Source: a bacterium
GTDB lineage: Bacteria; Cyanobacteriota; Sericytochromatia; S15B-MN24; UBA4093
Direction of reading: 5' to 3'
Assembly: GCA_017744355.1 (NCBI GenBank)
Contig: JAGIBK010000001.1
Location: 771,694-835,693 of the forward strand
Length of the DNA stretch: 64,000 nt
Shown here piece by piece: positions 17,671 to 50,767 of the stretch; position 1 is the stretch's first letter; each line of letters begins with the position of its first letter. The position numbers were made by a program, and so were the translations under genes. A model generated the notes under the pieces. The model searched no databases, was not told where the DNA came from, and saw only the letters and a list, made by a program, of their open reading frames with translations.

Positions 17671-17682
17671 GTGAACGCCTCT

Positions 17683-21231: not shown

Positions 21232-21244
21232 AGGGTTTCTCCGT

Positions 21245-25594: not shown

Positions 25595-25834
25595 CTAGCG
25601 AAGATGGCCAATTTTGCCCTCCTGACGAAGCCCCTCCGCAATGGCTTGCATAACCTCCGCTAAGTCCACTGTGCGCTCAAAGTCCACCACCGCCAGGTCC
25701 GGTAGGGGATCCATTTGCTCAACCTCGGCCTCAGTGAAGGCGATCTCGACGTCGTAGCCGCGAGCCTTGAGCTGCTCCTTGAGAAATTCGAGCAAGTCGG
25801 GGCGTGGGTCGACAATCGCGATCCGTAAAGGCAT
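25595..25834 (-). CDS. Small receiver (CheY)-like fragment protein, 79 aa
   Basis: RIAIVDPRPDLLEFL...DLAVVDFE resembles the N-terminal two-thirds of a response-regulator receiver domain. It is truncated relative to a full roughly 120-aa receiver. Confidence 0.3.
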   Translation of the reverse strand: MPLRIAIVDPRPDLLEFLKEQLKARGYDVEIAFTEAEVEQMDPLPDLAVVDFERTVDLAEVMQAIAEGLRQEGKIGHLR

Positions 25835-26025
25835 CGTGCGTTCTCCTTCGGATGGCTGCCCGTTTGCTGGGCTAGCGACAGCAGACTGTCGAGCCCTTTA
25901 CCGGGGACTGTCCACCACGTCGACAAGGGTGCTCGACCTGCACTGATTCAGCTTCACCCGTTAGCAGCAGGCTCAGTTGGCAAGCCCCGACAGTACCATA
26001 CCCGTGGTTACCCCCGCCCTCCAGG

Positions 26026-27159
26026 TCAAGCGGGTTTTTCAATCTCAGGGAAGCTGCTTAATGTCAACAGTCGCGCCCGGATATCCTTCGACGAGGCGGT
26101 CAGATCCACTGTGGCGAAGCGAATCTGGTGGCCCTGGATTACGACGCTTTCGTCCACACTGGCCCCTGCCGAAGGATGCAGCAACATGCCGAAGGCCTGG
26201 TCGGCCATAGGGTCACCTCGATCCACCTGGGACCGCAGATAAGCGTAGATCTGGTAGAGGTATCCGCTTCGCAGAGTTGCATCGCTGTACCATCCCTTCG
26301 CCAAGATGGTCGTGAACTTGGTGTCGATGACAATGCGTCGGTTCGTCGGCACGTGCTCCAGGATCACATCGGTCCGCATGGCAGGCAGGATGGCATCGAT
26401 TCCAGGGGTCTTGGCTTCGATGGCCCACCCCAGCGGGGCGCCCGTCCGCACCCGCCACCCCTGAGGAGTGAGCGTCACAGCGTAGAAGCCCCCGACGGCC
26501 TTCTCAAAAAGGCGGCGCACCCAAGTCTCCTCGCGCTCGGGCTGAAGCATGGCGTTAGGGCCCGCCGCCTCGGTGGGTAACGCCAGATCAAAGGCCAGTT
26601 TGGCCGCAGCTACCATGAATCGATCGGCGGTGTCGTTGCGCCCGAAGCGATCGGCGCTGATCTGGGCCCGGGTCGGAGGATTGCCGGACACCCCCATCGC
26701 TCGCAGGTCGCCCGCCATGGAGCGACAGCGGTGCGCCAATTCTGGGCGCCGAACCAGTCGGGCGATCTTCTCCAGGGCGGCTCGGACAAAACGGTTGCGC
26801 GGCGTATCGACCGTCAACTCGTCGAAATGGCAGGCCACCAGCCCCCGGGACAGAAGTTGCCGCCGCTCGGTGCCGATCAGGTCGATCCGACCTCGAACCC
26901 GGTTCAAGACGGCGTCCCGCGATTGGTAGCCATACGTGAGCTGACGGCGCTGCCGCTGTTCGACCGCCTGAGCCAGGATCTCCGCGACCAGGCCCGGCAA
27001 GTCCTCCAGGTCGTCCTCCTGACCGAGCGAACCATCGCCCCGAGTTCGATAGAGCTCCGAAGCGTAGAGCATCAGCAGCCAGAGGTTGCGCACCGGGATG
27101 CGGCCGATGAATCCGGCCGCATCCGAAGCTATCTCCTGCGCCGCCAAGGAGCTGCTCAT
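26026..27159 (-). CDS. mcrC: Type IV restriction endonuclease subunit McrC
   Basis: The N-terminal IPVRNLWLLMLYA matches the McrC IPIRNLYYMLTYA region. C-terminal PD-(D/E)xK core VIDTKFT and YLYQIYAYL follow the E. coli McrC pattern. 4-bp overlap with mcrB. Confidence 0.8.
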   Translation of the reverse strand: MSSSLAAQEIASDAAGFIGRIPVRNLWLLMLYASELYRTRGDGSLGQEDDLEDLPGLVAEILAQAVEQRQRRQLTYGYQSRDAVLNRVRGRIDLIGTERRQLLSRGLVACHFDELTVDTPRNRFVRAALEKIARLVRRPELAHRCRSMAGDLRAMGVSGNPPTRAQISADRFGRNDTADRFMVAAAKLAFDLALPTEAAGPNAMLQPEREETWVRRLFEKAVGGFYAVTLTPQGWRVRTGAPLGWAIEAKTPGIDAILPAMRTDVILEHVPTNRRIVIDTKFTTILAKGWYSDATLRSGYLYQIYAYLRSQVDRGDPMADQAFGMLLHPSAGASVDESVVIQGHQIRFATVDLTASSKDIRARLLTLSSFPEIEKPA

Positions 27160-29408
27160 TCCCAGTCCTTCAGCAGCAGCTCGCGGGCCTTTTTGGCCTC
27201 GGCGGGCGAGTCGAACCAGTACTCCTCCAACAACGGTCCAATCTCGGTCTCGACGACCTGGCGGAACCAGGAGCGGGTCTCACCCGGTTCGAGGGGGTAC
27301 GGGGGCGTCACGTAGCTATGTCCAACGCGGAACTGCTTGCCCAGCCGGGCATCCCCGGCGATGGTCGCATTGCAGACTTCTAGCCGCGCCTCGATGTCGT
27401 TCGCTAGGTCGGCCTCGAGCCCGCAGTGTTGGGTGACCCAGTCGCGCCACGCCGGACCCAGGCGCGGCTCCAGATCCGCGAAGGCGAAGCGACGCCTCAG
27501 GGCCAGATCGACCAGTGCCAGTGAGCGGTCGGCGATGTTCATCGTGCCGATCACGTGGAGGTTTTCCGGGATATGGACGGGGCGGCGTACCCCATCTGCA
27601 TCGGGATAGCAGAGCTCGAGCGCCTCGCTGGGCGTACGTTTACCGGCCTCCAGTAGCGTTAGCAACTCGCCGAAGATCTGCGCGGGGTTGCCGCGGTTGA
27701 TCTCCTCGATGACCACGACAAAGCGTGACATTGGAGCCTTGGCTGCCGCCTTGATGGCTTCCATGAAGATGCCGTCGGCCAGGGAAAGTTTGCCGTCGCC
27801 CGTGGGGCGCCAGCCGCGCACGAAGTCCTCGTAGGACAGGTTCGGATGGAACTGCACCGCTCGAACCTTGCTCTCGTCCTTCTGGCCGATCAGGGAAAAG
27901 GCCAGGCGCTTGGCCAGCCAGGTCTTGCCCGTACCGGGCGGGCCCTGGAGGATCAGGTTCTTCTTGGTCCGTAGTCGCACGAGCAGCTGGTCAAGCTCCT
28001 TCCGGGTGAGGAAGCAGCCCTCCTGCAGCACGTCGTCGATCGAGTAGGGCACCAAGGACTCGGCCTTCTGCACGAGTCCGGGATCTTCATCCTCGGATTC
28101 GTCGGTGGGGTCCGTGGATGGCTGCGATGGAGTCGTCGCGCTGGGGTCCTTGTAATGCCAGGCCGACAGTGAGAGCTCCGGAAAGGAATGGGCCGGGTAC
28201 GAGGGCTCCTGGAAACGTGGGATCAGGGCGTCCATGATCGCCAGGTAGTCGGTGGCGTTACAGAGGCCCTTCGGGCCATGCCGCTCGATGGGCACGCCGA
28301 GCTTCTTGGTGATGTAGAGCTTGGAGCCGCTGTCGAGGCTGAGAAACGACCAAGGTCGGATCCAGTACAATCCGAAGGTGAGGTTCCAGGCCACCAGTGG
28401 GCGTCCGTTGGCATGGTCAAAGGCCAGGGAGAAGCGCGCACGAGCTTCCTCATCGTCCGATTCCGCGAAAGCCAGCGCGGCGGCAAACAGCGCCCAGAGC
28501 GAATCGATGTGGTCCGGGGTGCGGGCACTCTCCCTGGGAAAGTACCAGGACTTTAGGTTGTTCAGTACGGGTATGCCCTCGAAGGATTCCGGGATCGGCT
28601 CCTCGACGCCCAGGAACTGGCCCAGTTCCTTCATGATGATGCGCCGATTTGCATCAGTGATGCCCCGATTGAACAACCCCATGACCGTGAACGGGCAGAT
28701 ATCTCTCAGGAAGCCCGTCGTGCCGTCGGGATACTCGTCTTGCGACAGATGGCCCAGGCCTTCGACGTGCTGGGCGATGCCTTGAATGGCTTCGAGCAGC
28801 GGCTTGCGATCGTCCCGATATGCCAGCAGCTTGTCGGCGATCGCCTCGTAGAACTTCGTCCACCCAAAGCGCTTCGCCTCCGGCGCCTGGGTCCCGAACC
28901 GCTCTCGCCAGAACGGTGCGTTGCAGAAGCGGGCGTAGTCCTGCGTATCGCCCTCGAAGGCGAACGCGATCAAGCCGTCGGTCATCCAGTCGCCGGCCTG
29001 CACTCGCCAGATGGTCGCCCGGTGGGTGTAGAAGTACCACTCTCGGGCCGGGGTGACCGGCATCCAGTCCACTCGCACCCGCTGGCCGTCGTTCAAGTTC
29101 TCGACGATCGTTCCAATGGCCTTGATGGCCATCACCGAGACGGACAGACCACGATTGTCGAAGGGAAGCCCGTGTTTGCGGACGTAGGACGATTTGATGG
29201 CGATCCGGTCGCCGGGCCGCATCGACCTGACGAGCTCGAGATACTTGTCATCGTAGCCGTTCTCCCAGACGCCTTCCGCCAGGAACCGCGCCGTGTGGTC
29301 ATCCGTGTCGTTGTAAAAGGCACCGACGAACCAGGCTGTCGGGTGCTTCACCGACTCCACGGTAGCGGTGGCAAGGGACGATGGGCTCAGCTGTTCTTCT
29401 GCGTTCAC
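27156..29408 (-). CDS. mcrB: McrB-family GTP-dependent AAA+ subunit with long N-terminal DNA-recognition extension (750 aa)
   Basis: Walker A LILQGPPGTGKTW. Walker B VVVIEEINRGN. McrB signature IGTMNIADRS. About 430 aa N-terminal region of unassigned fold precedes the GTPase. Confidence 0.8.
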   Translation of the reverse strand: MNAEEQLSPSSLATATVESVKHPTAWFVGAFYNDTDDHTARFLAEGVWENGYDDKYLELVRSMRPGDRIAIKSSYVRKHGLPFDNRGLSVSVMAIKAIGTIVENLNDGQRVRVDWMPVTPAREWYFYTHRATIWRVQAGDWMTDGLIAFAFEGDTQDYARFCNAPFWRERFGTQAPEAKRFGWTKFYEAIADKLLAYRDDRKPLLEAIQGIAQHVEGLGHLSQDEYPDGTTGFLRDICPFTVMGLFNRGITDANRRIIMKELGQFLGVEEPIPESFEGIPVLNNLKSWYFPRESARTPDHIDSLWALFAAALAFAESDDEEARARFSLAFDHANGRPLVAWNLTFGLYWIRPWSFLSLDSGSKLYITKKLGVPIERHGPKGLCNATDYLAIMDALIPRFQEPSYPAHSFPELSLSAWHYKDPSATTPSQPSTDPTDESEDEDPGLVQKAESLVPYSIDDVLQEGCFLTRKELDQLLVRLRTKKNLILQGPPGTGKTWLAKRLAFSLIGQKDESKVRAVQFHPNLSYEDFVRGWRPTGDGKLSLADGIFMEAIKAAAKAPMSRFVVVIEEINRGNPAQIFGELLTLLEAGKRTPSEALELCYPDADGVRRPVHIPENLHVIGTMNIADRSLALVDLALRRRFAFADLEPRLGPAWRDWVTQHCGLEADLANDIEARLEVCNATIAGDARLGKQFRVGHSYVTPPYPLEPGETRSWFRQVVETEIGPLLEEYWFDSPAEAKKARELLLKDWE

Positions 29409-29495
29409 GTCGTATCCTCGTATTCGATGCTCGGGTAATATGCTCGATGCTTGATTATGGCCATACGATCGGATAAATGGGTCAGGTACGCTAAC

Positions 29496-30923
29496 TCAGT
29501 CAGGTTCCCTCTCTGTGTTCTGCCCCCAGAATGCCAGGTCATGGTCCTCCAGGCCCCTGCGATAGAGATCCCAGGCGAGTCGCTCGATGACCTCACGCAT
29601 CGCCAGGCGATCTCGCCAGCGCGAGGGGATCGCCTCGACACCGTAGTAGGCTCCAGCCAGCTGGCCCGCAATCGCCGCCGTCGTGTCGGCATCGTGACCC
29701 AGGTTCACGGCCAGCAGGACCGTATCCTCGAAGCTCTCCGCGCGATCGAAGGCCCAGAGTGCCGCTTCAAGAGACTCCACAACGTAGCCGGTTCCTCGGA
29801 TCTCCGGAGGCTGCTTGCGCTTGAAGGAGCCCTGGGCAATCGTTGCGATTTCCGCGCAGAGCGGATGCGCCTGGTAGTAACCGTCGATGGGGCTGAAGAC
29901 AGGCGCCAGCAGATCCTCCTTCCCGTACCCCTTGAGGGCACCAATCAGGAGCCCGCTGAAGAAGCGGCAAGCATCCACGGCCGTCGTGGCACCGTGTGTC
30001 ACGCGCGAACTCTCGCCGGCCAGGTGGATGGCCGTGGCAGGGTCCTGGTACAGGAACAGCGGCAGTGGTGCGAGACGCATCAGGGAGCCGTTGCCCGCCT
30101 TGCGGGGGTCCGTGGATCCGGCGACTGGATTGCCCGCGGACTCGAAGGCCTCGAGAGCCTCCCGGACGGTCACGCCGATATCGAAGCACCGCCCCGTGCT
30201 ACTCAGGTATCCTTCGCGGTACCAGCGCAGATAGCGCTTCATCTGTGACTCGGGTTGGAACCCATCTTCGATCAAGCTCTCGGCCAGGCACAGGGCCATC
30301 GAGGTGTCATCCGTCCACTGCCCGGGCGCGAGGCGGAACGGGCCGCCACCGACCATGTCGACGACCGGCTCGAACCGCCCGGGAGTCTGGAATTCGACCG
30401 TCGTGCCCAGCGCATCGCCGACCGCGAGTCCCAAGAGGGCGCCGAGGAATCTTCCCGAGAGATCCGAGGGCCGCTCTCGGTCACGATCAGGACGGCTCCC
30501 CATGAACATGGGGTCACCAAGCCCGGGATTTTGCAGACGCTCTCGCAGCGCATGATACTGGGAGCGCCACTCTGCCTCGGGGGGGAGGTCGCCCGTATGG
30601 TGGGTCCCGCGGCAAGTGTGGTAAAGCGTCAACCACACGTCGAGGATCCCACCGATCCAGGTGCCGGTACGGGTGTAGATCTGCGTTCGGGCGCGGGCCA
30701 GTTCGCTGATGTCACCGTAGCCGAACTCCGTGGCCAGGTCGTAACCCCGGATGGCGAGGTGGAGGACCCAGTATTCATCGAACGTGGGGTCCAGGGGCAG
30801 GGCCGAGAGATCACCGTGGAAGAATGAGGCCATGGCTGGCCGGATCCGGTCGAGGAAGTCGTCGACTGGATATAGATAGACTCGGCGGCGATCCCGGGTG
30901 GTGCGCATTACGGGCTCCTTCAC
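29496..30923 (-). CDS. ADP-ribosylglycohydrolase (DraG/ARH family) with about 150-aa N-terminal domain of unknown function
   Basis: ARH motifs GALLGLAVGDALG, GQWTDDTSMALCL, GNGSLMRLAP and GHDADTTAAIAGQLAG. The N-terminal 150 aa have no recognisable similarity. The GTG start overlaps the upstream exonuclease stop (GTGA). Confidence 0.75.
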   Translation of the reverse strand: MKEPVMRTTRDRRRVYLYPVDDFLDRIRPAMASFFHGDLSALPLDPTFDEYWVLHLAIRGYDLATEFGYGDISELARARTQIYTRTGTWIGGILDVWLTLYHTCRGTHHTGDLPPEAEWRSQYHALRERLQNPGLGDPMFMGSRPDRDRERPSDLSGRFLGALLGLAVGDALGTTVEFQTPGRFEPVVDMVGGGPFRLAPGQWTDDTSMALCLAESLIEDGFQPESQMKRYLRWYREGYLSSTGRCFDIGVTVREALEAFESAGNPVAGSTDPRKAGNGSLMRLAPLPLFLYQDPATAIHLAGESSRVTHGATTAVDACRFFSGLLIGALKGYGKEDLLAPVFSPIDGYYQAHPLCAEIATIAQGSFKRKQPPEIRGTGYVVESLEAALWAFDRAESFEDTVLLAVNLGHDADTTAAIAGQLAGAYYGVEAIPSRWRDRLAMREVIERLAWDLYRRGLEDHDLAFWGQNTEREPD

Positions 30924-31681
30924 GTTTCCTGAGTTTGCACCGGAAGGCGCACGCTGTCCTCACGAGCACCCGGGCGCGGCAAGCCATGCGCGATCCTGAC
31001 CAGCGCCGCAATTTGCTTGGGCGATAGATAACCCTTGAGCTGATACTGCCCCTCGCAGGATGCCAGGAAGGAGTTGCCCGGCAGGGCCTTTTGAGCCTCG
31101 TCCAGGAGCAAGGGAAACAGGGTCCCCGCCCGGGCCCGTTCCACCAGTTCGGGAGCCTCGGCGAGAAAGCGAGATAGGACCTGGGCGGTGGCCCTGACGT
31201 CACCCAGCGCGTCGTGTGCCTCATGAGGAAGCCCATAGTAGGCGGTAAGGGTTTCAAGGCGCGCATCGGCAGTTAGTTCCCGGGCCTGGAGGTGGACCCG
31301 GGCCACATGGACGGTGTCGATGAAGTCCGTCCGACGCGGAACCTCAAGGCCGAGTCGACCCTCGCAGGCGCGCAGGAAGTCCAGGTCGAAGCCGATGTTG
31401 TGGCCCACCACAACGGGTAGCTCCGAGAGGGTGCCCACGTAGTCGGCGAGCATGCCGAAGGCCTGCCGTGGCTCCATCGCATGGGTGAAGTCCTCGAGGG
31501 TCCTCCCCTGGATGGCGAGCGCTTCCTCAGTGACCGTCTCGGGTCGCTGAGGCCGAATCAGGGTCGCGAAAGCCGCCAACTCTCGCAGCGAGTCATCCAG
31601 CAGCAGAGCCGCCACTTGGGTGGGCTCGTGCTCGGTCGGGTCCAGCCCCGTCGTCTCGAAGTCGAGAACAAGATACTTCAT
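30920..31681 (-). CDS. DEDDh 3'-5' exonuclease (DnaQ/Pol III epsilon-like) with C-terminal extension
   Basis: Exo I YLVLDFETTGLDP. Exo II VVGHNIGFDLDFL. Exo III HDALGDVRA. An ATG (MKYLV) at about 31681 overlaps the AddA-like stop by 4 bp. The track ORF extends to a GTG at 31756. Confidence 0.75.
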   Translation of the reverse strand: MKYLVLDFETTGLDPTEHEPTQVAALLLDDSLRELAAFATLIRPQRPETVTEEALAIQGRTLEDFTHAMEPRQAFGMLADYVGTLSELPVVVGHNIGFDLDFLRACEGRLGLEVPRRTDFIDTVHVARVHLQARELTADARLETLTAYYGLPHEAHDALGDVRATAQVLSRFLAEAPELVERARAGTLFPLLLDEAQKALPGNSFLASCEGQYQLKGYLSPKQIAALVRIAHGLPRPGAREDSVRLPVQTQET

Positions 31682-34600
31682 GTGCTGGTCCCTGCCGCCT
31701 GGGAGGTCGGCGCCGAGGCGGTGATCGCGCTGGGGCACAGCAGGACATAGGGGCACCCGGGACAGGTCCTCGGTGAAGGAAGCGCCTCGAACCGGCCTTC
31801 TCCGATGGATTGCACGATCGCGGCGGCCTGGGCGCCTGCCGCCTCAAGTCGATCGGGCGTGAACTCGTGCAGCGTCCCGTGCTGCAAATAGGCCAACAGG
31901 CCTCGAGGCTTGCCGACCGCCCGCGTGTAGACCCAGAGCTGCATGGCATGGTGATCGGGGTCCATCACCCGGTCGGTCTTGTAGTCCAGGATGAAGTCGG
32001 GACCGATGGCGTCCACCACCCCCTTCAGCTCCAGGCCCCCGAGACTTAGCGTGATGGGACGTTCCCGCTCGGAGATGGCCTCCCGCACCTCCCGGAACAC
32101 CTCTTCGCTCCGGAAGGAGCGGGCAAAGCGCAAGGCCGTCTCGACGAGATCGGGAGCGAGGTCGGAGACATGCGGGGCGAGCGCCGCCGCCTCGTCGAGG
32201 TCGAGTTCCAGGGCCAGGTGTGCGGCCGTACCCACCCGGTTCGCATGGGGGACCGGCACCGGCAGGGGCGGCGCAAGCTCCGTCGCATCATCCGAGGGCA
32301 CTGCCCCGTGGGGACCGACCTCCTCGCTACCGGGATGGCCATCGACGTAGCGATAGGCAAAGGCTCTCGGACACCGTGCAAACACAGCCAGCGCCGTGAC
32401 CGGCAGCTCGCTCAGCACCGTCCCCAGGGGCTGCTCGAACCAGCGGGCAGGAAGCGGGACCGGATCCAACGGTCCAGGCAACGGGGGCCGCTCGTCACCG
32501 GGCTGCGGCTGGACCTCGTCGATAACTAGCCCGGCCTCTTCGAGACCCGGCGCCAGAAAAGCCAGGGCGCCCTTGACCGGGTCGGGGGCCGTCAGCAGCA
32601 GGCGATCGCGGACCCGAGTCAGGGCCACGTAGAAAATCCGGCGCTCCTCCGCCTCCTCGCGTTCCTGCACGCGTCGTTTGTGGAGCTTCAACCGCAGGGG
32701 CTCCTGCGAATTACCCTCCTCGTCCTTGAACTTCAGCCCCACGCCCAGCTCCGCATCGAAGCGGATCCGGGTCCGATCGGCCGGCTTGTCGGCCGTGAGG
32801 TTGGGCACCACGACCACCGGCCATTCCAGACCCTTGGCGGCATGGATGGTCATGAGCAGCACCGCGTTGCCTGCCTCCAGAGCGGGTCGATCGAGCTCGA
32901 TCTCGGCCTCGCTCAGGCGTCGGATGCGGCGTACGACCGTCAAGACGTCCTGCGCGCCACGCTCGAGCCGACGTACCTGGTCGATCAAGCCGCTCCAGTC
33001 CGCCAGGCGCCGGTGCGCGCCCGGCATCCCTGCCAGCACCGCACTGTAGCCGGTGAGCCGATCCGCCAGTTGCAACAAGCGGCTGGGCGGCTCGCTGCGC
33101 TGGTCCAGGAGTTCCTGCAGAATGTCGCGCGCCGTCACCAGATCGGGCTCGCTTGATGCCTCCACCACCTGCCACCAGCTGCTCGCGCCGCGTGCGTCGG
33201 CCGCGCGATGCAGGACGGCATCCGAGACGGCGAAGAACGGGCTACGCAGGATCGCCACCAGGGCCTGGTCATCGCGCCGATCCGCCAGAAAGCGAAGCAG
33301 CGCGGTCCCGTCCAGTGCCTCGCGGGTGGCGAGCAGGTCGCTGCCTCGGGCCAGGGTTGTTGGTATGCCCTCCGCGGCCAGGGCCTCCTCGTAGATCGCC
33401 AGCGGCGCTCCCGTCCGGCACAGCACCGCGACATCCCCCCACCTCATCGGGCGCAGCTCGCCCGCGCCCTTGTCATGCAGGAGCAGACCTTCCTCATGCC
33501 AGGCCTTGAGGCGCCGGGCGATATGGCGAGCCTCAATGCGGCGTCTCGCCTCCACATCTCCGGCAGCCGCCTTGGGGACGTGAGCGGCCTCCAGGTGCGG
33601 CAGATCATGAGGGACACTTCGCTGACCCACGAGATCCTGGCGCAGACTTCCGAGCGACGGGCCACATACCCGGTTGATGATCTCGAGAAGCGGACCGTGC
33701 GTGCGGAAACTCTCCTTGAGGCTCACGCGATCGCCCCCGCGTCCGGCGATCGCCTCGGCCATCCGACCGAACACCGTCACGTCGGCACGGCGGAACCCGT
33801 AGATCGACTGCTTCTCGTCGCCCACGATCGTGAGAATCGCGCCCTCGGTGAGCAGGTTCAGCAGGCGGGCCTGGACCGGGTTGGTGTCCTGTACCTCGTC
33901 GAGCAGAAAAGCCCGCCAGCGACTCCAGTAGTAGGCAAGAACCTCGGGGTGCTCCAGGGCGCGCAGGGCATGGACCTCGAGATCGCCGAAGTCCAGTACC
34001 CGCTCCTGAGCCTTGGCCGCCGTGAGGTGGCCCCGGATCTGAGCGAAGGCCTGGCGCAAGGCCGGGACCATTTCCGCCAGCACGTCGTCGAGCGCGCCGG
34101 GCTCGAGCCACAACAACGACTCCTGGGACAGCAGGTCCCGAACCTCGCTCAGGGCCTTTTTGACCTCCTCGTATTGCTCGGGGTCCCAGCCCTTCTTGCT
34201 CCCGACATTGAGCTTGATGCCCAGCACCGGCGCGAAGTCCGGCCACGGTGCTCCGGCAGTCCGTCGTGCCAGGGCATCAGTCAGAGCCAGGGTTTCGACC
34301 CGCTGGGTTTCCCTGAGACCATCGCCCGCGCAGCGTCTCAGGGCACTCACGGCTTCTTGCCACGGGTCCGAGGTGATCAACCTGGCCACGAGGGATTCGC
34401 GTTCGGCAGACAGCACGGCGGGGAGATCAAGTGGATCCCTGGCCAGTGCCTCTTCGGCCGTCAGGGGATCGGCGCCGAAAGCCTCCATGGCGGCCCGCAG
34501 CAGGTCCGACGGAATTGAGTCCTGGATCTCGGCGGGCAGGCCAGCGATCGCTTCGTCTAACTGTTCCAACGCCCAGATGGGGCCCTCGGGCCGATCTTCC

Positions 34601-34950
34601 AGGATGGTGAAATCGGCCGGAACCCCGGCCGCATCGGGGTGCTCGCGGCAGATCCGGGCGGCGAGGGCGTGCATGGTCATGATGGGCGCCGCCTCCAGCT
34701 CCACGGCCACCTGAGGCGCGAAGGGTGGCTGAGCAGCGGCGACGTCCTTGCGAATCCGGGATCGCATTTCGGCTGCGGCCATGTCCGTGAACGTGGTGGC
34801 CACGATCTCGAGCGGCGAGAGGCCATGCGTCCGCAACAGCTGCAGGTAGCGCGCCGAGAGCATGTGTGTCTTGCCGGTACCGGCTCCCGCCGTGACGCAC
34901 ACATCCCCGGGTGCCTCGACGGCACGTTGCTGGTCGAGCGTGAGTGGCAT
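31678..34950 (-). CDS. AddA/AdnB-like helicase-nuclease: UvrD-family SF1 helicase + C-terminal RecB-family nuclease with 4-Cys cluster
   Basis: Motif I VTAGAGTGKTHML. 1090 aa. C-terminal RecB nuclease motif ILDYKTDR. Cysteines (FARCPRAF...CPGCPYVLLC) suggest an Fe-S staple. Confidence 0.8.
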   Translation of the reverse strand: MPLTLDQQRAVEAPGDVCVTAGAGTGKTHMLSARYLQLLRTHGLSPLEIVATTFTDMAAAEMRSRIRKDVAAAQPPFAPQVAVELEAAPIMTMHALAARICREHPDAAGVPADFTILEDRPEGPIWALEQLDEAIAGLPAEIQDSIPSDLLRAAMEAFGADPLTAEEALARDPLDLPAVLSAERESLVARLITSDPWQEAVSALRRCAGDGLRETQRVETLALTDALARRTAGAPWPDFAPVLGIKLNVGSKKGWDPEQYEEVKKALSEVRDLLSQESLLWLEPGALDDVLAEMVPALRQAFAQIRGHLTAAKAQERVLDFGDLEVHALRALEHPEVLAYYWSRWRAFLLDEVQDTNPVQARLLNLLTEGAILTIVGDEKQSIYGFRRADVTVFGRMAEAIAGRGGDRVSLKESFRTHGPLLEIINRVCGPSLGSLRQDLVGQRSVPHDLPHLEAAHVPKAAAGDVEARRRIEARHIARRLKAWHEEGLLLHDKGAGELRPMRWGDVAVLCRTGAPLAIYEEALAAEGIPTTLARGSDLLATREALDGTALLRFLADRRDDQALVAILRSPFFAVSDAVLHRAADARGASSWWQVVEASSEPDLVTARDILQELLDQRSEPPSRLLQLADRLTGYSAVLAGMPGAHRRLADWSGLIDQVRRLERGAQDVLTVVRRIRRLSEAEIELDRPALEAGNAVLLMTIHAAKGLEWPVVVVPNLTADKPADRTRIRFDAELGVGLKFKDEEGNSQEPLRLKLHKRRVQEREEAEERRIFYVALTRVRDRLLLTAPDPVKGALAFLAPGLEEAGLVIDEVQPQPGDERPPLPGPLDPVPLPARWFEQPLGTVLSELPVTALAVFARCPRAFAYRYVDGHPGSEEVGPHGAVPSDDATELAPPLPVPVPHANRVGTAAHLALELDLDEAAALAPHVSDLAPDLVETALRFARSFRSEEVFREVREAISERERPITLSLGGLELKGVVDAIGPDFILDYKTDRVMDPDHHAMQLWVYTRAVGKPRGLLAYLQHGTLHEFTPDRLEAAGAQAAAIVQSIGEGRFEALPSPRTCPGCPYVLLCPSAITASAPTSQAAGTST

Positions 34951-37569
34951 TCAGGCCTCCTTTCGCCCGAGTCGAGCGCCGGCCCGGCAAACCACCCCGT
35001 GCTCGCAGTACTCGCAAGCTGCCCGCTTGAGGTCAGGCGCAACGGGGAAGTGCCCTTCTTCCAGGTGGGCCTTCAACCGGCTCAAGAGCAGTTCCAGGGC
35101 CGGCTCGTCAACCTCGGCCCTGTGTCGCTTGGGCTTCGAGAGGGTGTAGTACGAGGCCTCCCGCACCGCCACGCCGGGGTACAGGGCCGGCGCCGCCGCC
35201 TCGATGTAGATGGGAAGTTGCAGGTCGATGGTGTTCTTGCGCGAGGCGTCCTGGGCCTTGCCGTAGATTGCGCTGCCGGCCTTGTAGTCGAGGATGACCA
35301 GCTCGCCACCAACGCGATCGATGCGGTCCACCTGCCCCTGGACCTTGAACCCCCTCCATTCCCCCTTGAAGTGGCCCTCGGTGGCGGCGATTTCGCCCCC
35401 CGCGTCGAGGAACCCCTCGTGCAGGACGGCGCGGCGCAGCACCGTCAGGTGCTCCTCCCGGCGGGCATCCCAGCCGGGAAGGTCGGACAGACGATATCCC
35501 AGCTCCGGAACGAGCTCGCCTTCGGCCTCCAGCATAGAGGCCTCGAGACGATCGAGCACGGATTGGCGCGGGTCGGTCGCTCCGATGGCCGCACGGCAGG
35601 CCAGCTCGAGGGTCTTGTGGTAGAGCAGCCCCCGGACCTGAGGCTCGATGCCCTCGATCGCCTCGTCAGGCTCCTTGATCCGCAGGACCTTTTGGGCATA
35701 CCAGCGGAAGGGACACTGCCCGAGGGATGAGAGCTGGCTGGCGCTAAAGGTTCGCCGGCGCCAGTCCACCGGGATCCCGGAGGTGCCGTCGTGAGGGTTG
35801 GCCTCCCGGAGCGAACCCGGCGCCTCCCGGCGGCGCTCGATGGCGAGCGCCATCCTGGCCCTCGCCAGCACGGCGTCTTCGTCCGCGTAGTCGGACAGGA
35901 TCTTGATCCGGCGTCCCTCCTCGGGGCTCGCGACCGGAACCTCGGGAGTTTCGAGCTTGATGCCGAGCCATCCGAAGGCCGGGCTGGGCAGGCGAGCTTT
36001 GCCCGCCTGGAGGCGAGAGCAGGTGAACGTCAGCGTCTCGGAGGCCACGGTGAGCAGCGAGTCGAACGTGAGCCGCTCCCGTCGGGCGGCAGACGTTGCG
36101 GTCTCGAGCGGAAGGCCGGCTGTCTCGAGGCGCTGGCGGGTGATGAAGTCCAGCACGGGATCGTCGTTCAGGCGCGCGGGAAGCTCGTCTTCCGCCGTCC
36201 CGATTACGAAAAGGTGCTTCACTCGTGCGCCAAAGAGCGCCAGCGGAGTATGCAGGCCCACGCCCCCCCGGGCGGGATGGGCCGGGGTCGTCAGGATGCT
36301 CAGGGCCTCCCGGACCTCCTGGAGGAACTCCGCCCGCGAGCGAGAAGAGGTATCTCGTTCGCCCAGAAGATCCAACGCTCGCGTGAACCGGCCCACGGCG
36401 ATCGTCTCGGCCGCCCAGTGGCGCGCACGCCGGACGATGCCCAGGCGCTGCAGCAGAACGCGCAGACGCTGGGCCCATTCCAATCCCGTGGCCGCCTCAG
36501 GCCAGACCAGTTCCTGGGTTGGCACCCCCAGCGCGGCCCACTCGTCGGGCCCATGGGGATGACTGGCTCGGGCCTCGAGACGCTTCTCGCCGTTGAGCGC
36601 CCGGCACAGCGGATGGCCCAGCAGTCGAAACGTGGGTTCGAAGGGAAGGTTTGTCTCGATCACCTCGGTGAGCAGACCCAGCCAGTGCCCGAAGCGAGTT
36701 TCTGAGAGCGGAATCTGGTACTCGGCATGGACCGGCACCCCATGTTCGGCGGCGATTGCGAGCACCAACGGTCCGTGGGCTGCATCGTCGCGGGCCGCGA
36801 TCGCGACCTCGGCGGGCGATGTCCCACCTAGCAGGAGCTCCTTGACATGGGCCAGCACGGCTCGTACCTCGGCCACCTGGTCCGCTAACTGCCAACCCCG
36901 CATTGTCGAGGGGCGCTGCGGCGCTTCCAGGTCGGCACGTTGCACCCGCCAGCCGGCTTGCTCAAACCGCTCGGCAAGGGCCACGTTCTCGTGAACCGCG
37001 TCGTGCTCACCTCCCGGTAGGATCAGGGCCGAGCCGGGAGCCGCCAACGCCAGCAGGAACGCTTCCTCATCGCGCCCCAGGCGCGGGTAACCGGTCACCA
37101 GCACCGACTGCCGCTTCACGGAGCCTTGAATCGCCAGCCAGTAGGTCTCGGCAGGATCATGGAGCCTCAGCTCACGAAGGCGAGCGAGGTAACCCTGGAC
37201 GAACCGAGCGACCTGCTGAACCCGGGGATCGTCGAATGCTGCAAGTTGTTCGAGGTCCAGTCCGGCGCGCAGCACCTCGGCCACGACGGGGGCCAGGCGG
37301 CGTGCGGTGCCAGCCGGGTCCGGGAACCCATGGGCAAGTGCGAGGTCACGCAGAAGGTGTGGCGCCGTGAGGGCATCGATGGCCGTCCGACCAGCGCGGG
37401 CGAGCAGACCCTGCGCCAGGCGTTGGAGGCTGACGTGTGGCACTCCGAGGGCCCGTGCGGCACGAGGATTGGGGGTCACGACCAGGCGACCAGGCACCAG
37501 GGCGGTTGCCTGAGGGTGCGGCGCCGATGTGAGGTAGAGGGTGGGGTTCGCCTCCCGTTCAGCCGTCAT
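34951..37569 (-). CDS. AddB-like subunit: degenerate helicase-like N-terminus + RecB-family nuclease with Fe-S cysteines
   Basis: 872 aa and no Walker A. C-terminal ILDYKAGSA nuclease motif. Cys pattern CPFRW...CEYCEHGVVC typical of the AddB iron staple. Directly abuts the AddA-like gene. Confidence 0.7.
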   Translation of the reverse strand: MTAEREANPTLYLTSAPHPQATALVPGRLVVTPNPRAARALGVPHVSLQRLAQGLLARAGRTAIDALTAPHLLRDLALAHGFPDPAGTARRLAPVVAEVLRAGLDLEQLAAFDDPRVQQVARFVQGYLARLRELRLHDPAETYWLAIQGSVKRQSVLVTGYPRLGRDEEAFLLALAAPGSALILPGGEHDAVHENVALAERFEQAGWRVQRADLEAPQRPSTMRGWQLADQVAEVRAVLAHVKELLLGGTSPAEVAIAARDDAAHGPLVLAIAAEHGVPVHAEYQIPLSETRFGHWLGLLTEVIETNLPFEPTFRLLGHPLCRALNGEKRLEARASHPHGPDEWAALGVPTQELVWPEAATGLEWAQRLRVLLQRLGIVRRARHWAAETIAVGRFTRALDLLGERDTSSRSRAEFLQEVREALSILTTPAHPARGGVGLHTPLALFGARVKHLFVIGTAEDELPARLNDDPVLDFITRQRLETAGLPLETATSAARRERLTFDSLLTVASETLTFTCSRLQAGKARLPSPAFGWLGIKLETPEVPVASPEEGRRIKILSDYADEDAVLARARMALAIERRREAPGSLREANPHDGTSGIPVDWRRRTFSASQLSSLGQCPFRWYAQKVLRIKEPDEAIEGIEPQVRGLLYHKTLELACRAAIGATDPRQSVLDRLEASMLEAEGELVPELGYRLSDLPGWDARREEHLTVLRRAVLHEGFLDAGGEIAATEGHFKGEWRGFKVQGQVDRIDRVGGELVILDYKAGSAIYGKAQDASRKNTIDLQLPIYIEAAAPALYPGVAVREASYYTLSKPKRHRAEVDEPALELLLSRLKAHLEEGHFPVAPDLKRAACEYCEHGVVCRAGARLGRKEA

Positions 37570-38207
37570 GGGTGCACCGGACGCTTCTGCGATGGGACCA
37601 CCGCCACCAGCTCGGACGGGGCCGCCACATAGAAGAGGGCGATATCGAGGTCCTGGGCCTCGCCCCGGACCAGATCCAAGGCGCTTTCTGTCATTCGCTC
37701 ATTGGCATCTCGTGCCGAATCGATCACCAGCATCGCCAGCTGCGGGATTGAGGCAGGCGCACGATGGGCAATCTCTTGACCCAGGGCATGCAGCTTCCTG
37801 AGGTCCTTGAGCACTTCCCCCGGGGATAGGCGTCCTTTGTCGCGCTCAGAGGCCTTGCTCTCCAGGGCCAGTAGCATCTGGCGCAGGGTATTGTCGCGGT
37901 TCCGGCGCCGCCAGTCGGCTTCGATGCCCTCGGCGAAAATGACCACATCCGGGATGGGCTCGAACCCTCCGCGGTAGCCCTCGGCCTTTCGCCGGTCGAG
38001 TTGCCGGAACAGCGTCGTCTTGGGACGCGGAATCCAGATCTTGACGTTCATTCCCAGCTGCTCGAGGGGAACCTGACCGTGCACGCGCAGTGCGTGGTAA
38101 ACCATCGCTTGGTAGTGCTGCTCCGAGCCGAGGACTGCGCAGCATTCCGTCGCGATAACCGGGAGAGCACGCTTTAAGGCTGTTAGTGCGTCTTTGGGCG
38201 TCTTCAT
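37566..38207 (-). CDS. Small PD-(D/E)xK-like hypothetical protein (213 aa)
   Basis: Candidate restriction-endonuclease-fold core (EPIPDVVIF ... LALESK). First structural gene downstream of the WYL regulator. 4-bp overlap with the AddB-like start. Confidence 0.35.
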   Translation of the reverse strand: MKTPKDALTALKRALPVIATECCAVLGSEQHYQAMVYHALRVHGQVPLEQLGMNVKIWIPRPKTTLFRQLDRRKAEGYRGGFEPIPDVVIFAEGIEADWRRRNRDNTLRQMLLALESKASERDKGRLSPGEVLKDLRKLHALGQEIAHRAPASIPQLAMLVIDSARDANERMTESALDLVRGEAQDLDIALFYVAAPSELVAVVPSQKRPVHP

Positions 38208-38258
38208 TGCTGCGTCCTCGAGAAAGGCGTGGGGCGTCGAAGGTGACGAGCTTCTTTC

Positions 38259-39263
38259 TTAAGTAACCATCGATTGCTTCTTGAATGGGTCAGGCTGGTT
38301 GACCTCCGTCGGCGCGAGTTCCGAGGCCATTCGGGCGATGGTGGCCTGAACCTCGGCAACCACAAAGTCGGGCTCGACCACCCGGGCCTGACCGCCGTAG
38401 GACAGAATCCTGCGCACGGCCCGCAAAGGAATGCTCTCCTTGATGGCCACCAGACGGCTGCCGTCAGGCGTCTCCTCAAGGACTCGCAGGCGCTGGGGAA
38501 CCCTCTGGAACCCCGAGGCCATCGACGCCGAGAGCCAGATCTGAAACTCAAAGGCTGGGACCTGATCCAGCGAGACTGGGGTATCGAGCACCTCGACAGC
38601 CGGGCTGGTCTTGGTGGAGCAGAAGCGATCCAGGCGGAATTCCCGGTTCTTGTGCCACTCCGTGCTGCCCTCGGCCTCGGGGCAGTGCGCATGGAGGTAC
38701 AGAAAGCCGTCCTGCCAGGTTAGATAGGCCCGGTCCACCAGGTACCGCTTGGGTTCGCGGTTCAGTGGACGATAGGTCAGGCGCATCATGCGGCCGGTCT
38801 GAATGCCATGCTGAAGGCTGTCGAGGACCTGCGCGTCGTAGGCCGTGTTGCCCGTCCTCAGGAGGCGACCGGTGTAGGGATCAGACAGGCCTTCGCGAAC
38901 CGAGGCAGGCACTCGCTCGAATAGCGTGCGAAGGCGCTCCGCTTCCGGCAACTTGAGATCCTCGAATAGCGCCACGGCGGTCTGCAGGGCCGCCGCTTCC
39001 TCGTTGTTGGCGAACAGCTCCAGGTGCCCCATGTCCAGCTCATAGGCCTGCTTGGTCAGCTTGTCGCCGGGGCCTAGCGGACGAAAGCCAATGCCCAGCT
39101 TGCGCAACGCCTTGACGTCGGCCGAGATTGAGGCTTCCGAGAGCCCGGCATCCGTCTCGTAGTCCGAAGACAGTTCCAGTAGGCGGCTGAGAACCTCACC
39201 CCGAAACAAGGGGCCAGTAAGCAGCATCTTGAGGATGTTCCAGCGGCGTTCGAACGCGTCCAT
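38259..39263 (-). CDS. WYL-domain transcriptional regulator (wHTH + WYL; BrxR/CapW-like)
   Basis: N-terminal HTH (ERRWNILKMLLTG...VLSRLLELS). Central WYL-type motif (YLVDRAYLTWQDGFLYLHAHC). The ATG at 39263 has a GAAGGGGG RBS. The track ORF extends to a TTG at 39329. Confidence 0.7.
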   Translation of the reverse strand: MDAFERRWNILKMLLTGPLFRGEVLSRLLELSSDYETDAGLSEASISADVKALRKLGIGFRPLGPGDKLTKQAYELDMGHLELFANNEEAAALQTAVALFEDLKLPEAERLRTLFERVPASVREGLSDPYTGRLLRTGNTAYDAQVLDSLQHGIQTGRMMRLTYRPLNREPKRYLVDRAYLTWQDGFLYLHAHCPEAEGSTEWHKNREFRLDRFCSTKTSPAVEVLDTPVSLDQVPAFEFQIWLSASMASGFQRVPQRLRVLEETPDGSRLVAIKESIPLRAVRRILSYGGQARVVEPDFVVAEVQATIARMASELAPTEVNQPDPFKKQSMVT

Positions 39264-39398
39264 CGCGCCCCCCTTCGACGAATTTGCATGAATTAGCTTG
39301 CTTGACCCATTCGTACCCCAACCGATCAAAACTAACCCTCGTTCGCTACCAAAACATCATGGCAACCGGAGTAGATTCGGTTTCGAGCGGAGGAATCA

Positions 39399-40367
39399 AT
39401 GCTAGACGTGAAGGTCAAGTCGGACACGATCTGGGTCGGCGAGCACTTCTCGGTCGACTTTCAGCGGACCCTGCGCATTCCTGACGACGGGATCGTCTAT
39501 CCGCTACCGCCCGGCCTGAGTCGCTTTCCCGTGCGCAGGGTCGACGACTACCTCGACCGAGTGCCGCCTGCCTGGCGTGAGCACGGTGGCGTCTTCATTC
39601 CCATGTACCAGCGAGAGGCGCTCTGGCTCTGCTTCGGCGGCTCCTACTGGAAGCCCCACGCGGTTAAGATCGCCATCGGCAAGATCAACGTGGTGACCGG
39701 TAGGGGCTGGGCTCAGCCCCTCGAGGAATCCCCTCAGGATTACCTCGTCTGCCCGGATCAGCCCTGGCTCGATGGGATCAATGCCGGGGAGGGGATGATT
39801 CGCCAGTTCGTCGCCATGCCGCTCGGCCAGGGGTACACCGTCGAGGGACAGCTCACCGGCGCCGAGAAACATGGAGGCATCCAGCTCATCGCCTTCGCCC
39901 CGAAGCCGGGGCGTTTTCCCGACGAGCCGCCGCGGGTCGAGACCTGCGATTACCTGGTTTGCGAGAGCGCGGCCGCACCGAGCATGGGCCTAGCGGCCGG
40001 CGGCAAGATGACCCAGAAGATCTATGCGGACGAGTACGGTCTCGACACCTGGGACCAGGAGAACTACGGGCGGGTGTTCATCCACATCGTCGACAGCATG
40101 GTGTTCCGGGAGATCACAGGGGAAGAACCGCCTCCCACGCCCGTCACGGCGAAGACCTACGCCCAATATCACCTGCCCTGGTTCTCCCTCTATGACGAAC
40201 TGAAGCAGGACCTACCGCCCTCGGGCATCCTCAAGGGGGTGAAGTCTGTCAAACAGGTCGACGTCGAGAAGGGCCACCAACCGCAGCAAGACGACAGCTC
40301 GGTGCCGGTGGACAATATCGTCAAGCTAGGCAAGAAGCCAAACACGGTCCGGGACGGCGAGTGGTAG
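39399..40367 (+). CDS. Hypothetical protein (322 aa), divergent from the WYL regulator
   Basis: Long ORF. No domain recognised by eye. Confidence 0.35.
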   Translation: MLDVKVKSDTIWVGEHFSVDFQRTLRIPDDGIVYPLPPGLSRFPVRRVDDYLDRVPPAWREHGGVFIPMYQREALWLCFGGSYWKPHAVKIAIGKINVVTGRGWAQPLEESPQDYLVCPDQPWLDGINAGEGMIRQFVAMPLGQGYTVEGQLTGAEKHGGIQLIAFAPKPGRFPDEPPRVETCDYLVCESAAAPSMGLAAGGKMTQKIYADEYGLDTWDQENYGRVFIHIVDSMVFREITGEEPPPTPVTAKTYAQYHLPWFSLYDELKQDLPPSGILKGVKSVKQVDVEKGHQPQQDDSSVPVDNIVKLGKKPNTVRDGEW

Positions 40368-40438
40368 CCGTGCTGCCGCTGGGTGTCCCGATTGTCTTCC
40401 CGAGCCCTCAATTCAACTCACAAAGGAGTTCCCGCGCC

Positions 40439-40861
40439 ATGCGAAGTCCCATACTCCCGCTCCTCACGACCGCGATGCTGGTCTTGGGATCGACCGCTCT
40501 TTCTGGTTGTAACGCCCTCTCCGGAATCTCCTCGTTGCCCGGCGTATCCTCGGTCGTTCCGGCGCCCAGCATCGATGGCGACTGGCTGGTGGTGCGTCCC
40601 GGATTCTCGACCTTCAGCCTCTCGCTTTACGAGAAGGGCGGGAAGATCACGGGTTCGGCTGGGACCGAACCCTATACGAATCCGCTGGCCGGTACCCGGA
40701 CGGGGAACAAGGTCGAGTTCGTCATCACCTTCAAGGACAGCACGACCGTCACCTACAGCGGGGACCTCAGCTCCGACGGTTCCCAGATCACGGGCGTCAT
40801 CGGCTCGGGTAGCTCAGCAGCCGATACCTTCACCGCCAACAAAAAGTCCTCCTCGCGCTGA
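40439..40861 (+). CDS. Lipoprotein (about 140 aa)
   Basis: AAAGGAG RBS. MRSPILPLLTTAMLVLGSTALSGC forms a signal peptide with a lipobox Cys. S/T/G-rich body. Confidence 0.5.
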   Translation: MRSPILPLLTTAMLVLGSTALSGCNALSGISSLPGVSSVVPAPSIDGDWLVVRPGFSTFSLSLYEKGGKITGSAGTEPYTNPLAGTRTGNKVEFVITFKDSTTVTYSGDLSSDGSQITGVIGSGSSAADTFTANKKSSSR

Positions 40862-50441: not shown

Positions 50442-50767
50442 ACCCCAGCCAACCGATGAAATAGAATGAATCAGTTAATGTGACCCATAGTGGGGTTTGT
50501 TGGCCGATATTGATGGTGGAGGTGACTACCAGTAAATGGGGGCAGGTCCGGCGGTGTGCACCAAGGATAGCCTTGCCATGAGACTCGATCGTCGCCAGGC
50601 GTGACAGTTCGAAGCCAGATGCGCAGCCCCATTCCAAAAGGGCGGATGGATCAGGCCGCAAGCTAAGCTGCGCACTGTTCGCGCGCCTTTTTGGACTAGC
50701 AAATGTTAACCCTTCAGCTGTATCGGGTACACCAAGGTGCCGCCCACTGAATCGAGAGGGTAGAACG

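Follow-up and report, generated by a model that had tools for sequence, protein, structure and literature searches.

The window analysed in this study is a stretch of 64,000 nucleotides (nt) from a Sericytochromatia genome (assembly GCA_017744355.1, contig JAGIBK010000001.1, positions 771,694 to 835,693 of the forward strand), and all coordinates given without a locus name are counted from its first nucleotide. The subject is a row of six minus-strand genes, here called G1 to G6, built around an AddAB-like gene pair. These genes encode a transcription regulator of the helix-turn-helix (HTH)-WYL-WCX type (G1, 38259-39263, 334 amino acid residues), an orphan protein (G2, 37566-38207, 213 residues), an AddB-like subunit (G3, 34951-37569, 872 residues), an AddA-like subunit (G4, 31678-34950, 1090 residues), a 3'-5' exonuclease of the DEDDh type, whose C-terminal extension (about 80 residues) is conserved (G5, 30920-31681), and an N-terminal domain fused to an ADP-ribosylhydrolase (ARH) domain (G6, 29496-30923). 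In the original prediction, which was made from the letters of the DNA, the row was read as a candidate anti-phage system. The six co-directional open reading frames (ORFs) are present in the ORF list at the coordinates claimed. In summary, G1 to G6 form an operon here, but they do not represent a conserved six-gene system.

It had been stated that 4-bp overlaps join all of the genes except the first two. This is true for the G2/G3 and G4/G5 junctions (ATGA). The G3 and G4 genes abut without overlap (TGAATG), with an AAGGAGG sequence just upstream as read at the junction, and the overlap of G5 and G6 depends on the start codon, since it requires a GTG start of G6. The gap between G1 and G2 is 51 nt. 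No intergenic terminator was found in the operon, the terminator matches of the scan not being intergenic. The sigma-70 promoter scan gave 0 sites, and the Rfam search gave no RNA family.

The assignment of G3 and G4 to AddB and AddA holds on sequence, motifs, and fold. The two genes are adjacent and co-oriented in the window. G4 matches the Pfam families UvrD-helicase (3e-51), UvrD_C, and PDDEXK_1 (2e-13). Its motor, which is of the UvrD type of superfamily 1A (SF1A), has intact motifs (Walker A AGAGTGKT at residues 21-28 and motif II DEVQD351), and its nuclease domain has ILDYK987, QLWVY1004 (QxxxY), and a four-cysteine motif composed of C860 and CPGCPYVLLC1063 (CxxCxxxxxC). The closest match of G4 in the PDB is AddA (3u44_A, 4e-42), and AdnB comes next. 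G3 matches PDDEXK_1 (9e-32), and residues C619, C852, C855, C861, D748, D761-Y-K763, Q784, and Y788 are invariant in 23 homologues of G3. An alignment-based AlphaFold2 model of G3 with a predicted local distance difference test (pLDDT) score of 88 has AddB (4cej_B) as its top Foldseek match (E 1.6e-32), followed by AdnA and RecC. The N-terminal region of G3 is a degenerate helicase-like body with no helicase motifs. The Walker A pattern [AG]xxxxGK[ST] is absent throughout G3, whereas the AddB of Bacillus subtilis carries a Walker A ATP-binding motif. Both nuclease domains, of G3 and of G4, are of the RecB type, each with four cysteines that form a predicted iron-staple motif. As predicted, both subunits are shorter than the canonical ones, with 872 and 1090 residues versus about 1160 for AddB and about 1230 for AddA in the B. 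subtilis PDB chains. The NCBIfam equivalog scores are far below the cut-offs (239 versus 708 for addA_Gpos, 177 versus 861 for addA_alphas, 54 versus 487 for addB_alphas, and 36 versus 904 for addB_Gpos). Thus, the pair belongs to a separate and shorter clade and is not an orthologue of a characterised AddAB. Judged from sequence and fold, G3/G4 is a genuine but divergent AddAB-type helicase-nuclease.

How does the pair compare with known enzymes? B. subtilis AddAB (PDB 3U4Q and 4CEJ) has the same addB-addA order, an AddA consisting of a UvrD-like SF1A motor and a C-terminal RecB-type nuclease, and an AddB consisting of a dead helicase-like body and a RecB-type nuclease with a four-cysteine iron-sulfur motif. 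On the other hand, the nuclease domain of the AddA-like G4 also has the four-cysteine motif, G3 has no Walker A, and the window pair is not only shorter but also belongs to a patchy and often plasmid-borne clade and stands here under a WYL regulator with extra genes. The mycobacterial AdnAB (PDB 6PPJ), which is the second-best match in fold and sequence, is likewise a heterodimeric end-resection enzyme with a RecB-type nuclease on each subunit. However, AdnA and AdnB both keep motor domains, whereas G3 has no helicase motifs. In the PADLOC search, G4 matched many GajB profiles via the common UvrD core. Unlike the Gabija system, which is composed of the OLD nuclease GajA and the UvrD helicase GajB, the operon has no GajA/OLD partner, and G4 brings a nuclease domain of its own and is partnered by an AddB-like subunit.

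G1 passes the Pfam cut-offs with both its WYL domain (6e-7) and its WCX domain (2e-11), and it matches the PADLOC WYL profile (5e-19). An N-terminal winged HTH was recognised by eye (GLSEASISADVKALRKLGIGF) and is invariant in three orthologues. The sole PDB match of G1 is a weak one to PafBC (6sj9, E 0.0035), from which G1 differs in being a single chain of 334 residues; no sequence match to the solved BrxR/CapW structures passed E 0.01. Orthologues of G1 with 72-74% identity were found in four loci, L083, L002, L090, and L094 (loci of relatives are denoted by L numbers), each within 4 kb of an AddB-AddA pair. Thus far, they have been found solely in loci with AddBA, in three lineages, and a metagenome scan with the G1 alignment gave no matches.

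The intergenic regions of the loci with G1 orthologues were compared. Three copies of a 9-mer, TGACCCATT, were found in the 64-kb window versus 0.30 expected, and none of 100 shuffles reached this number. One copy (39303-39311) lies 87 nt before U322, the first gene of the pair U322 and U140 (39399-40861, plus strand), which is divergent from G1 and has no family matches. It is part of a conserved block in the G1/U322 intergenic region (39280-39350, plus strand), a predicted promoter/operator. This block has 57 invariant columns in an alignment of five DNA sequences with about 105 shared columns, which come from three lineages whose AddB proteins are merely 43-60% identical. The second copy lies 76 nt before G2, where it extends a GGTCA-N7-TGACC palindrome (38284-38304, minus strand) within the last codons of G1; this is the predicted operator of G2. 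The third copy (29476-29484) belongs to an inverted repeat (29476-29507, minus strand) that ends 67 nt before the GTG start codon of the McrB-like gene, and 24 of the 32 nt of this predicted McrB operator are identical to those of the G1/U322 site. Each of the three copies is oriented toward its downstream gene.

In locus L083, TGACCCATT sites were found 88 nt before the homologue of U322, 86 nt before the gene following the WYL gene, and 126 nt before addB. The exact GGTCA-N7-TGACC palindrome occurs once in the window, at the G2 operator, and twice in L083, upstream of addB and of the gene following the WYL gene, so that three TGACCCATT sites in all form the palindrome. In the L002 lineage, TGACCCATT lies 60 nt before a set of VWA, DUF4177, and ARH genes. 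No such site was found before the BREX (bacteriophage exclusion) locus of the window (7960-25456). These results suggest that TGACCCATT is a predicted operator of G1-type regulators, and that one WYL regulon may cover U322, G2-G6, and McrBC. The proposed control by a WYL protein is backed by a putative cis-element common to the upstream region of G2 and to that of addB in a relative. BrxR/CapW regulators resemble G1 in their HTH-WYL-WCX composition, in their position at the head of a defence block including BREX, and in having a palindromic operator, predicted for G1; in contrast, the predicted sites of G1 precede the AddAB operon, McrBC, and U322, and not the BREX genes. WYL regulators of the PafBC/DriD type sense single-stranded DNA (ssDNA) and control damage responses. 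By analogy, I infer that G1 may sense a nucleic-acid signal such as ssDNA and switch the three promoters.

The DEDDh assignment of G5 was borne out. The RNase_T match (7e-26) covers positions 1-164 of the 164 of the profile, the PADLOC profile of cas-associated DEDDh proteins matches with 9e-30, and the catalytic set is complete (D7 and E9 in LDFE6, H156 and D161 in HDALGD156) and kept in the L002 homologue. The family is small, as the word-indexed search found 18 clusters at E<=1e-15, and a metagenome scan with the G5 alignment found relatives of 30-47% identity only. The relatives of 67-69% identity with a readable context adjoin WCX proteins beside Cas02710 genes, and no AddAB was found there. 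In L089 (6893-10744), which is a type III-B CRISPR-Cas locus, and in L093 (1501-5201), the G5-family DEDDh gene stands with genes for WCX-domain proteins of 424-445 residues and Cas02710. Other relatives lie in a mobile-element region, again with no AddAB. In four of five lineages, a G5-type DEDDh gene adjoins a WYL/WCX gene (e.g., L002/L090/L094, L089, and L093), which suggests a recurrent partnership of DEDDh and WYL/WCX proteins. The DEDDh gene accompanies the AddBA pair in two lineages.

The ARH assignment of G6 also holds. The ADP_ribosyl_GH match (277 bits, 2e-82) covers the full profile (positions 1-287 of 287), and G6 keeps all columns that are invariant in 12 homologues, including the metal-site residues D170, T204-D-D-T207, and D411-A-D-T-T415. 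Residues 156-457 match the Tri1 model with 323.8 bits, and the equivalog cut-off of 490 is not reached. In the PDB, G6 matches an ARH of the Thermus thermophilus type (2cwc, 2e-81) and Tri1 (6dre, 4e-73). Thus, G6 resembles Tri1/DraG in its full ARH fold and conserved metal-site residues; it differs from them in scoring below the Tri1 cut-off, in the fused N-terminal domain, and in that no cognate toxin was detected. Most of the stand-alone proteins listed, which come from many phyla and belong to a set of at least 8000 matches, share 63-69% identity with the ARH domain. The likelier start of G6 is an ATG at 30908, which lies 12 nt after the stop codon of G5 and behind a GAAGGAG sequence. It gives 470 residues, as in the Logan gene call. 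NCBI annotates just the ARH part, of 335 residues (MBO9539715.1), and the longer model is preferable because the N-terminal domain recurs, with 48% identity, in L002 and is also kept in a further 35 proteins.

About 155 N-terminal residues of G6 (1-155, 30459-30923) have no family assignment. They contain a helical-type domain of about 110 residues (approximately 22-135) for which there is no Pfam family. The 35 relatives of this domain, found among 1.84 billion representatives, are stand-alone, C-terminal to DUF488, or located immediately ahead of the Eco57I/MmeI-type methylase domain in large type IIG-like proteins. Since the domain associates with DNA methylases, G6 may possibly act on or near DNA. 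The ARH fusion accompanies AddBA in two lineages, and in both it lies behind the same predicted operator. In the range of 26 to 53 kb, none of the scanned genes showed an ADP-ribosyltransferase domain. The idea that the N-terminal domain of G6, or G2, is a hidden ADP-ribosyltransferase toxin, by analogy to DarT, was tried and had no support in the profile searches.

While five of the six predicted domain calls stand, the PD-(D/E)xK call for G2 comes from a motif recognised by eye (PD86-87 and E116-S-K118). With a threshold as loose as E<5, neither Pfam nor NCBIfam nor PADLOC gave a match for G2, and its single-sequence AlphaFold2 model has a pLDDT of 39 and is unusable. No homologue of G2 was found in the fetched loci. 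A 271-residue protein at the same slot after the WYL gene in L083 was considered as its counterpart and was rejected for lack of similarity. U322 and U140 have counterparts with 80% and 79% identity in L083 (4089-5594), where the two genes likewise diverge from the WYL gene; these values exceed the identity of AddB (60%).

Is the six-gene set conserved in relatives? I scanned one genome per species, in total 185,579 species genomes, with a pattern for the short AddAB clade. The clade has 143 confirmed loci in these species-level genomes, mostly of cyanobacteria, and the hosts also include Sericytochromatia, Trueperaceae, Deinococcales, Thermaceae, and Acidobacteriota. A word-indexed protein search found 26 clusters of clade members. 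The six window proteins were then compared by tblastn with 80 fetched loci out of the 143. In most of the 80 loci, the genes for AddB and AddA stand next to each other, and WYL, G2, DEDDh, and the ARH fusion are absent within 10 kb of the pair in all of them. Thus, the proposal of a conserved six-gene system does not stand, as the pair is alone in the 80 genome loci, the ARH gene is variable, and G2 is unique to the window. The clade is chiefly a two-gene cassette with a patchy distribution, and no conserved flanking synteny was found around the pair in the related loci. The pair is often borne by plasmids or megaplasmids, and there are 29 plasmid records with it (Thermus 18, Deinococcus 6, and Picosynechococcus 3), where the neighbours include type I-U CRISPR, HEPN, toxin-antitoxin, restriction-modification, and AIPR genes. 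In a census of 127 ORFs flanking mainly cyanobacterial pairs, 211 Pfam families were matched, which are mostly ordinary. A restriction of the entire clade to defence islands was considered and dropped, since the census shows no dominant defence family.

It is known that deletion of the addAB genes on plasmid pAQ6 of Synechococcus PCC 7002, whose product is 37% identical to G3, leaves the cells viable and lowers the number of transformants 400-500-fold. This loss of transformation, the one experimental result on the clade, indicates that the clade acts as a recombination enzyme and that the PCC 7002 member is not a barrier to incoming DNA. The pair has been noticed in Deinococcus swuensis and, as a pseudogene, in D. 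deserti, and was left uncharacterised. Most cyanobacteria have been described as having neither RecBCD nor AddAB, and the same has been said of Deinococcota. It is in these phyla that the short clade travels on plasmids and islands.

Several variations were observed among the loci of the clade. In five or six loci of the Nostocales type, a gene for a 1236-residue DUF6079 protein (BrxC/PglY-like) lies directly 3' of the AddA-like gene (L005, L008, L011, L012, L079, and L015, at approximately 16.4-20.2 kb in most and at 7955-11662 in L012). L003, L016, L071, L009, and L010 have AddA-like partners, some of which have only 840-870 residues and no C-terminal nuclease domain, and in L009 and L010 (Nostoc plasmid) three small genes lie between addB and addA. 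Many loci of Pleurocapsales have an AddB without an adjacent AddA. A very large helicase-nuclease with the composition DUF4011-AAA_11-AAA_12-MTES_1575-DUF3320 is encoded near AddBA in L002 and L003, with a partial match in L004, and both L002 and L004 also have SbcCD-like genes close to the pair; the regions of these neighbours are 14418-21374 in L002, 3265-8052 in L003, and 8524-15721 in L004. In a relative, a gene for an SMC/RecN-like ATPase adjoins the pair.

The closest relatives of G3, with 54-63% identity, are the metagenomic loci L083, L084, and L085, which have the pair without DEDDh, ARH, or G2. In L083, the pair lies beside a type 1 BREX locus, which directly follows AddA, and the WYL gene is 3 kb upstream. 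In L084, the pair lies among toxin-antitoxin genes, and in L085 beside SSB and RecQ genes. In the more distant lineage of L002, L090, and L094, whose AddB is 43% identical to G3, two WYL genes and DEDDh accompany AddBA, and the genes are ordered differently. Only L002 has the ARH fusion, 2.8 kb downstream of the AddA gene, with McrBC-like and helicase-nuclease genes around. Thus, an exonuclease and an ARH protein do occur together with AddAB elsewhere, in this one other lineage and in another order, and on this point the original prediction is not refuted. However, in L090, whose AddB shares 97% identity with the L002 protein, other genes take the place of the ARH fusion. The VWA gene is followed by DUF4177 and the ARH fusion in L002 (8306-11374) and by two unknown ORFs in L090 (1-2986). 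The slot behind the predicted WYL operator in the L002 lineage is a variable cargo slot.

The setting in a defence island, with McrBC on one flank and BREX beyond it, was borne out by the PADLOC and Pfam profile matches. The McrBC-like pair (26026-29408, minus strand) is composed of a 750-residue AAA_5/McrB_lid protein and a 377-residue partner, with Pfam and PADLOC REase matches. The type 2 BREX/Pgl locus (7960-25456, minus strand) is complete, with PglW, PglX, PglY/BrxC, PglZ, BrxD, and BrxHI, all with very strong PADLOC scores. On the other side, a 787-residue protein (42254-44617, plus strand) with an HSDR_N_2 nuclease-like N-terminus and ankyrin repeats matches the PADLOC candidate system PDC-M72A (4e-54). 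On these matches, the island has defence-type content (BREX, McrBC, and the PDC-M72A candidate) and spans about 45 kb. ARAGORN found no tRNA, so that the borders of the island cannot be placed by tRNA genes; metabolic genes begin at approximately 53.5 kb in the window. A phage origin was also considered. It was dropped because scans of viral contigs with the AddB and G5 alignments returned nothing.

It had been claimed that no described defence system matches the operon, and none was met with here. No system-specific profile set of PADLOC-DB v2 covers the operon, only the generic profiles of cas-associated WYL, Cas4, GajB, cas-associated DEDDh, and PDC-S48 match, PADLOC has nothing for G2 or G6, and a description was not found in the literature. 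The nearest precedent in defence for a UvrD-family helicase encoded together with a protein of the ADP-ribosylglycohydrolase fold is DarHTG (Liu-DS3; NAR 2026, PMC13069673), a validated defence operon of the DarT toxin, the UvrD-like DarH, and the ARH-fold DarG3. In contrast to DarHTG, no DarT or other ADP-ribosyltransferase was detected here, the helicase belongs to a complete AddAB heterodimer that also has nucleases, and the ARH is of the Tri1/T. thermophilus type.

What is the role of the operon? With moderate confidence, I regard it as an inducible, accessory AddAB DNA-end-processing operon under WYL control inside a BREX/McrBC island, in which the other three genes are lineage-specific additions. 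What is known here is the AddAB-type enzyme, and what is new is the short clade under a WYL regulator with add-on genes. As inferred from the AddAB family, G3/G4 would load on ends of double-stranded DNA, unwind them, and degrade them. The end processing would serve recombination, as in the PCC 7002 homologue, and, in lineages mostly without RecBCD, would also break down foreign DNA that is linear or restricted. G1 would control the promoters of U322, G2-G6, and McrBC via the predicted operator. G5 probably trims 3' ssDNA, which would either complete the degradation or remove the signal of G1, and G6 may be a mobile ARH cargo that reverses ADP-ribosylation, kept under the same regulator in two lineages. 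A defence role of the operon is plausible. Four points weigh against the reading as an accessory operon with additions. G2-G6 are translationally coupled, which argues for a joint function beyond add-ons. DEDDh, the ARH fusion, and a G1-type WYL protein recur near AddBA in a distant lineage, and chance is an unlikely cause since G5 and the N-terminal domain of G6 are rare. Because a -35-like TTGACC overlaps the TGACCCATT core at the U322 site, ordinary promoter sequence could account for some of the conservation. Finally, the mostly ordinary genes of the 127-ORF census mean that the link to defence islands is not general to the clade.

The tight packing and coupling of the genes would also fit a single dedicated anti-phage system of all six, as originally predicted, in which AddAB degrades phage ends, DEDDh finishes the degradation, ARH either gates the nuclease or reverses ADP-ribosylation by the phage, and WYL acts as the on-switch. 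The company of BREX, McrBC, and the PDC-M72A candidate in the island speaks for it, and so does L002, where WYL, AddBA, DEDDh, and the ARH fusion are together again among McrBC-like and helicase-nuclease genes. The ARH fusion stands behind the same operator in both lineages, and DarHTG sets a precedent for a UvrD-like helicase with an ARH-fold hydrolase. However, such a system is distinctly unlikely: the pair is alone in the 80 genome loci and in the three closest relatives, the ARH gene is missing from the locus with a 97% identical AddB, G2 is unique to the window, relatives of G5 occur in CRISPR and mobile-element contexts without AddAB, and no ADP-ribosyltransferase was detected nearby. 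Moreover, the homologous pair of PCC 7002 promotes the recombination of incoming DNA instead of blocking it. The opposite extreme is a mosaic of unrelated co-directional island cargo with no regulation or function shared beyond the AddAB pair. The slot after the WYL gene does hold unrelated genes (G2 here and the 271-residue protein in L083), what follows the VWA gene differs among members of the L002 lineage, and the distributions of G5 and G6 are independent. Nevertheless, overlapping or abutting junctions without intergenic terminators, a cis-element common to three promoters, and the renewed co-occurrence of three rare gene families in a second lineage make a mosaic very unlikely.

The PCC 7002 recombination phenotype fits another alternative, namely that the operon is a housekeeping, damage-inducible repair operon, the only double-strand-break end-resection machine of the organism, under a PafBC/DriD-like WYL activator, and that the neighbourhood of BREX and McrBC is incidental. 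The ssDNA sensing and damage responses of such WYL regulators, together with PafBC as the only PDB match of G1, agree with this, and so do the SSB and RecQ genes (L085), the SbcCD-like genes (L002 and L004), and the SMC/RecN-like ATPase gene that adjoin relatives, and the mostly ordinary flanks in cyanobacteria. A housekeeping enzyme would hardly be so patchy (143 loci among 185,579 species genomes), frequently plasmid-borne, decayed to a pseudogene in D. deserti, and devoid of conserved flanking synteny; in addition, the predicted regulon in the window takes in McrBC, and the contexts of the closest relatives differ (BREX, toxin-antitoxin, and SSB/RecQ). I consider the housekeeping role rather unlikely.

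RecBCD and AddAB are central to both repair and immunity, as they break down restricted DNA and provide both spacers for CRISPR and guides for Argonaute. Going beyond the accessory operon, one may speculate, with considerable doubt, that AddAB cassettes of islands and plasmids are inducible executioner nucleases for the neighbouring restriction-type systems in lineages without RecBCD. One WYL protein would co-induce McrBC, the AddAB-like enzyme, DEDDh, and a DNA-directed ARH on a nucleic-acid signal, and breaks made by McrBC or BREX would lead to full destruction of the invading DNA, with its ADP-ribose marks stripped. If this were true, WYL-AddAB-DEDDh would represent a new defence module, and an inducible one. 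One WYL protein with one operator over three promoters is a testable hypothesis that links an end-processing nuclease to McrBC. If the module proves to be defensive, it would be a new inducible effector; if not, it is likely the missing end-resection enzyme of these lineages. Two further leads are the DEDDh family that repeatedly partners with WYL/WCX proteins and the unannotated domain common to the ARH fusion and the type IIG-like methylases.

The remaining features lie on both sides of the operon. An ORF of 88 residues (25660-25926, minus strand) between the McrC-like gene and PglW has no Pfam match and looks by eye like a truncated receiver domain of a response regulator. Farther along the plus strand (47502-52036), a 979-residue helicase of the ResIII/SNF2 type is followed by a 422-residue GTPase-like protein (MMR_HSR1/AIG1/dynamin-like). 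These two genes may be another defence module.

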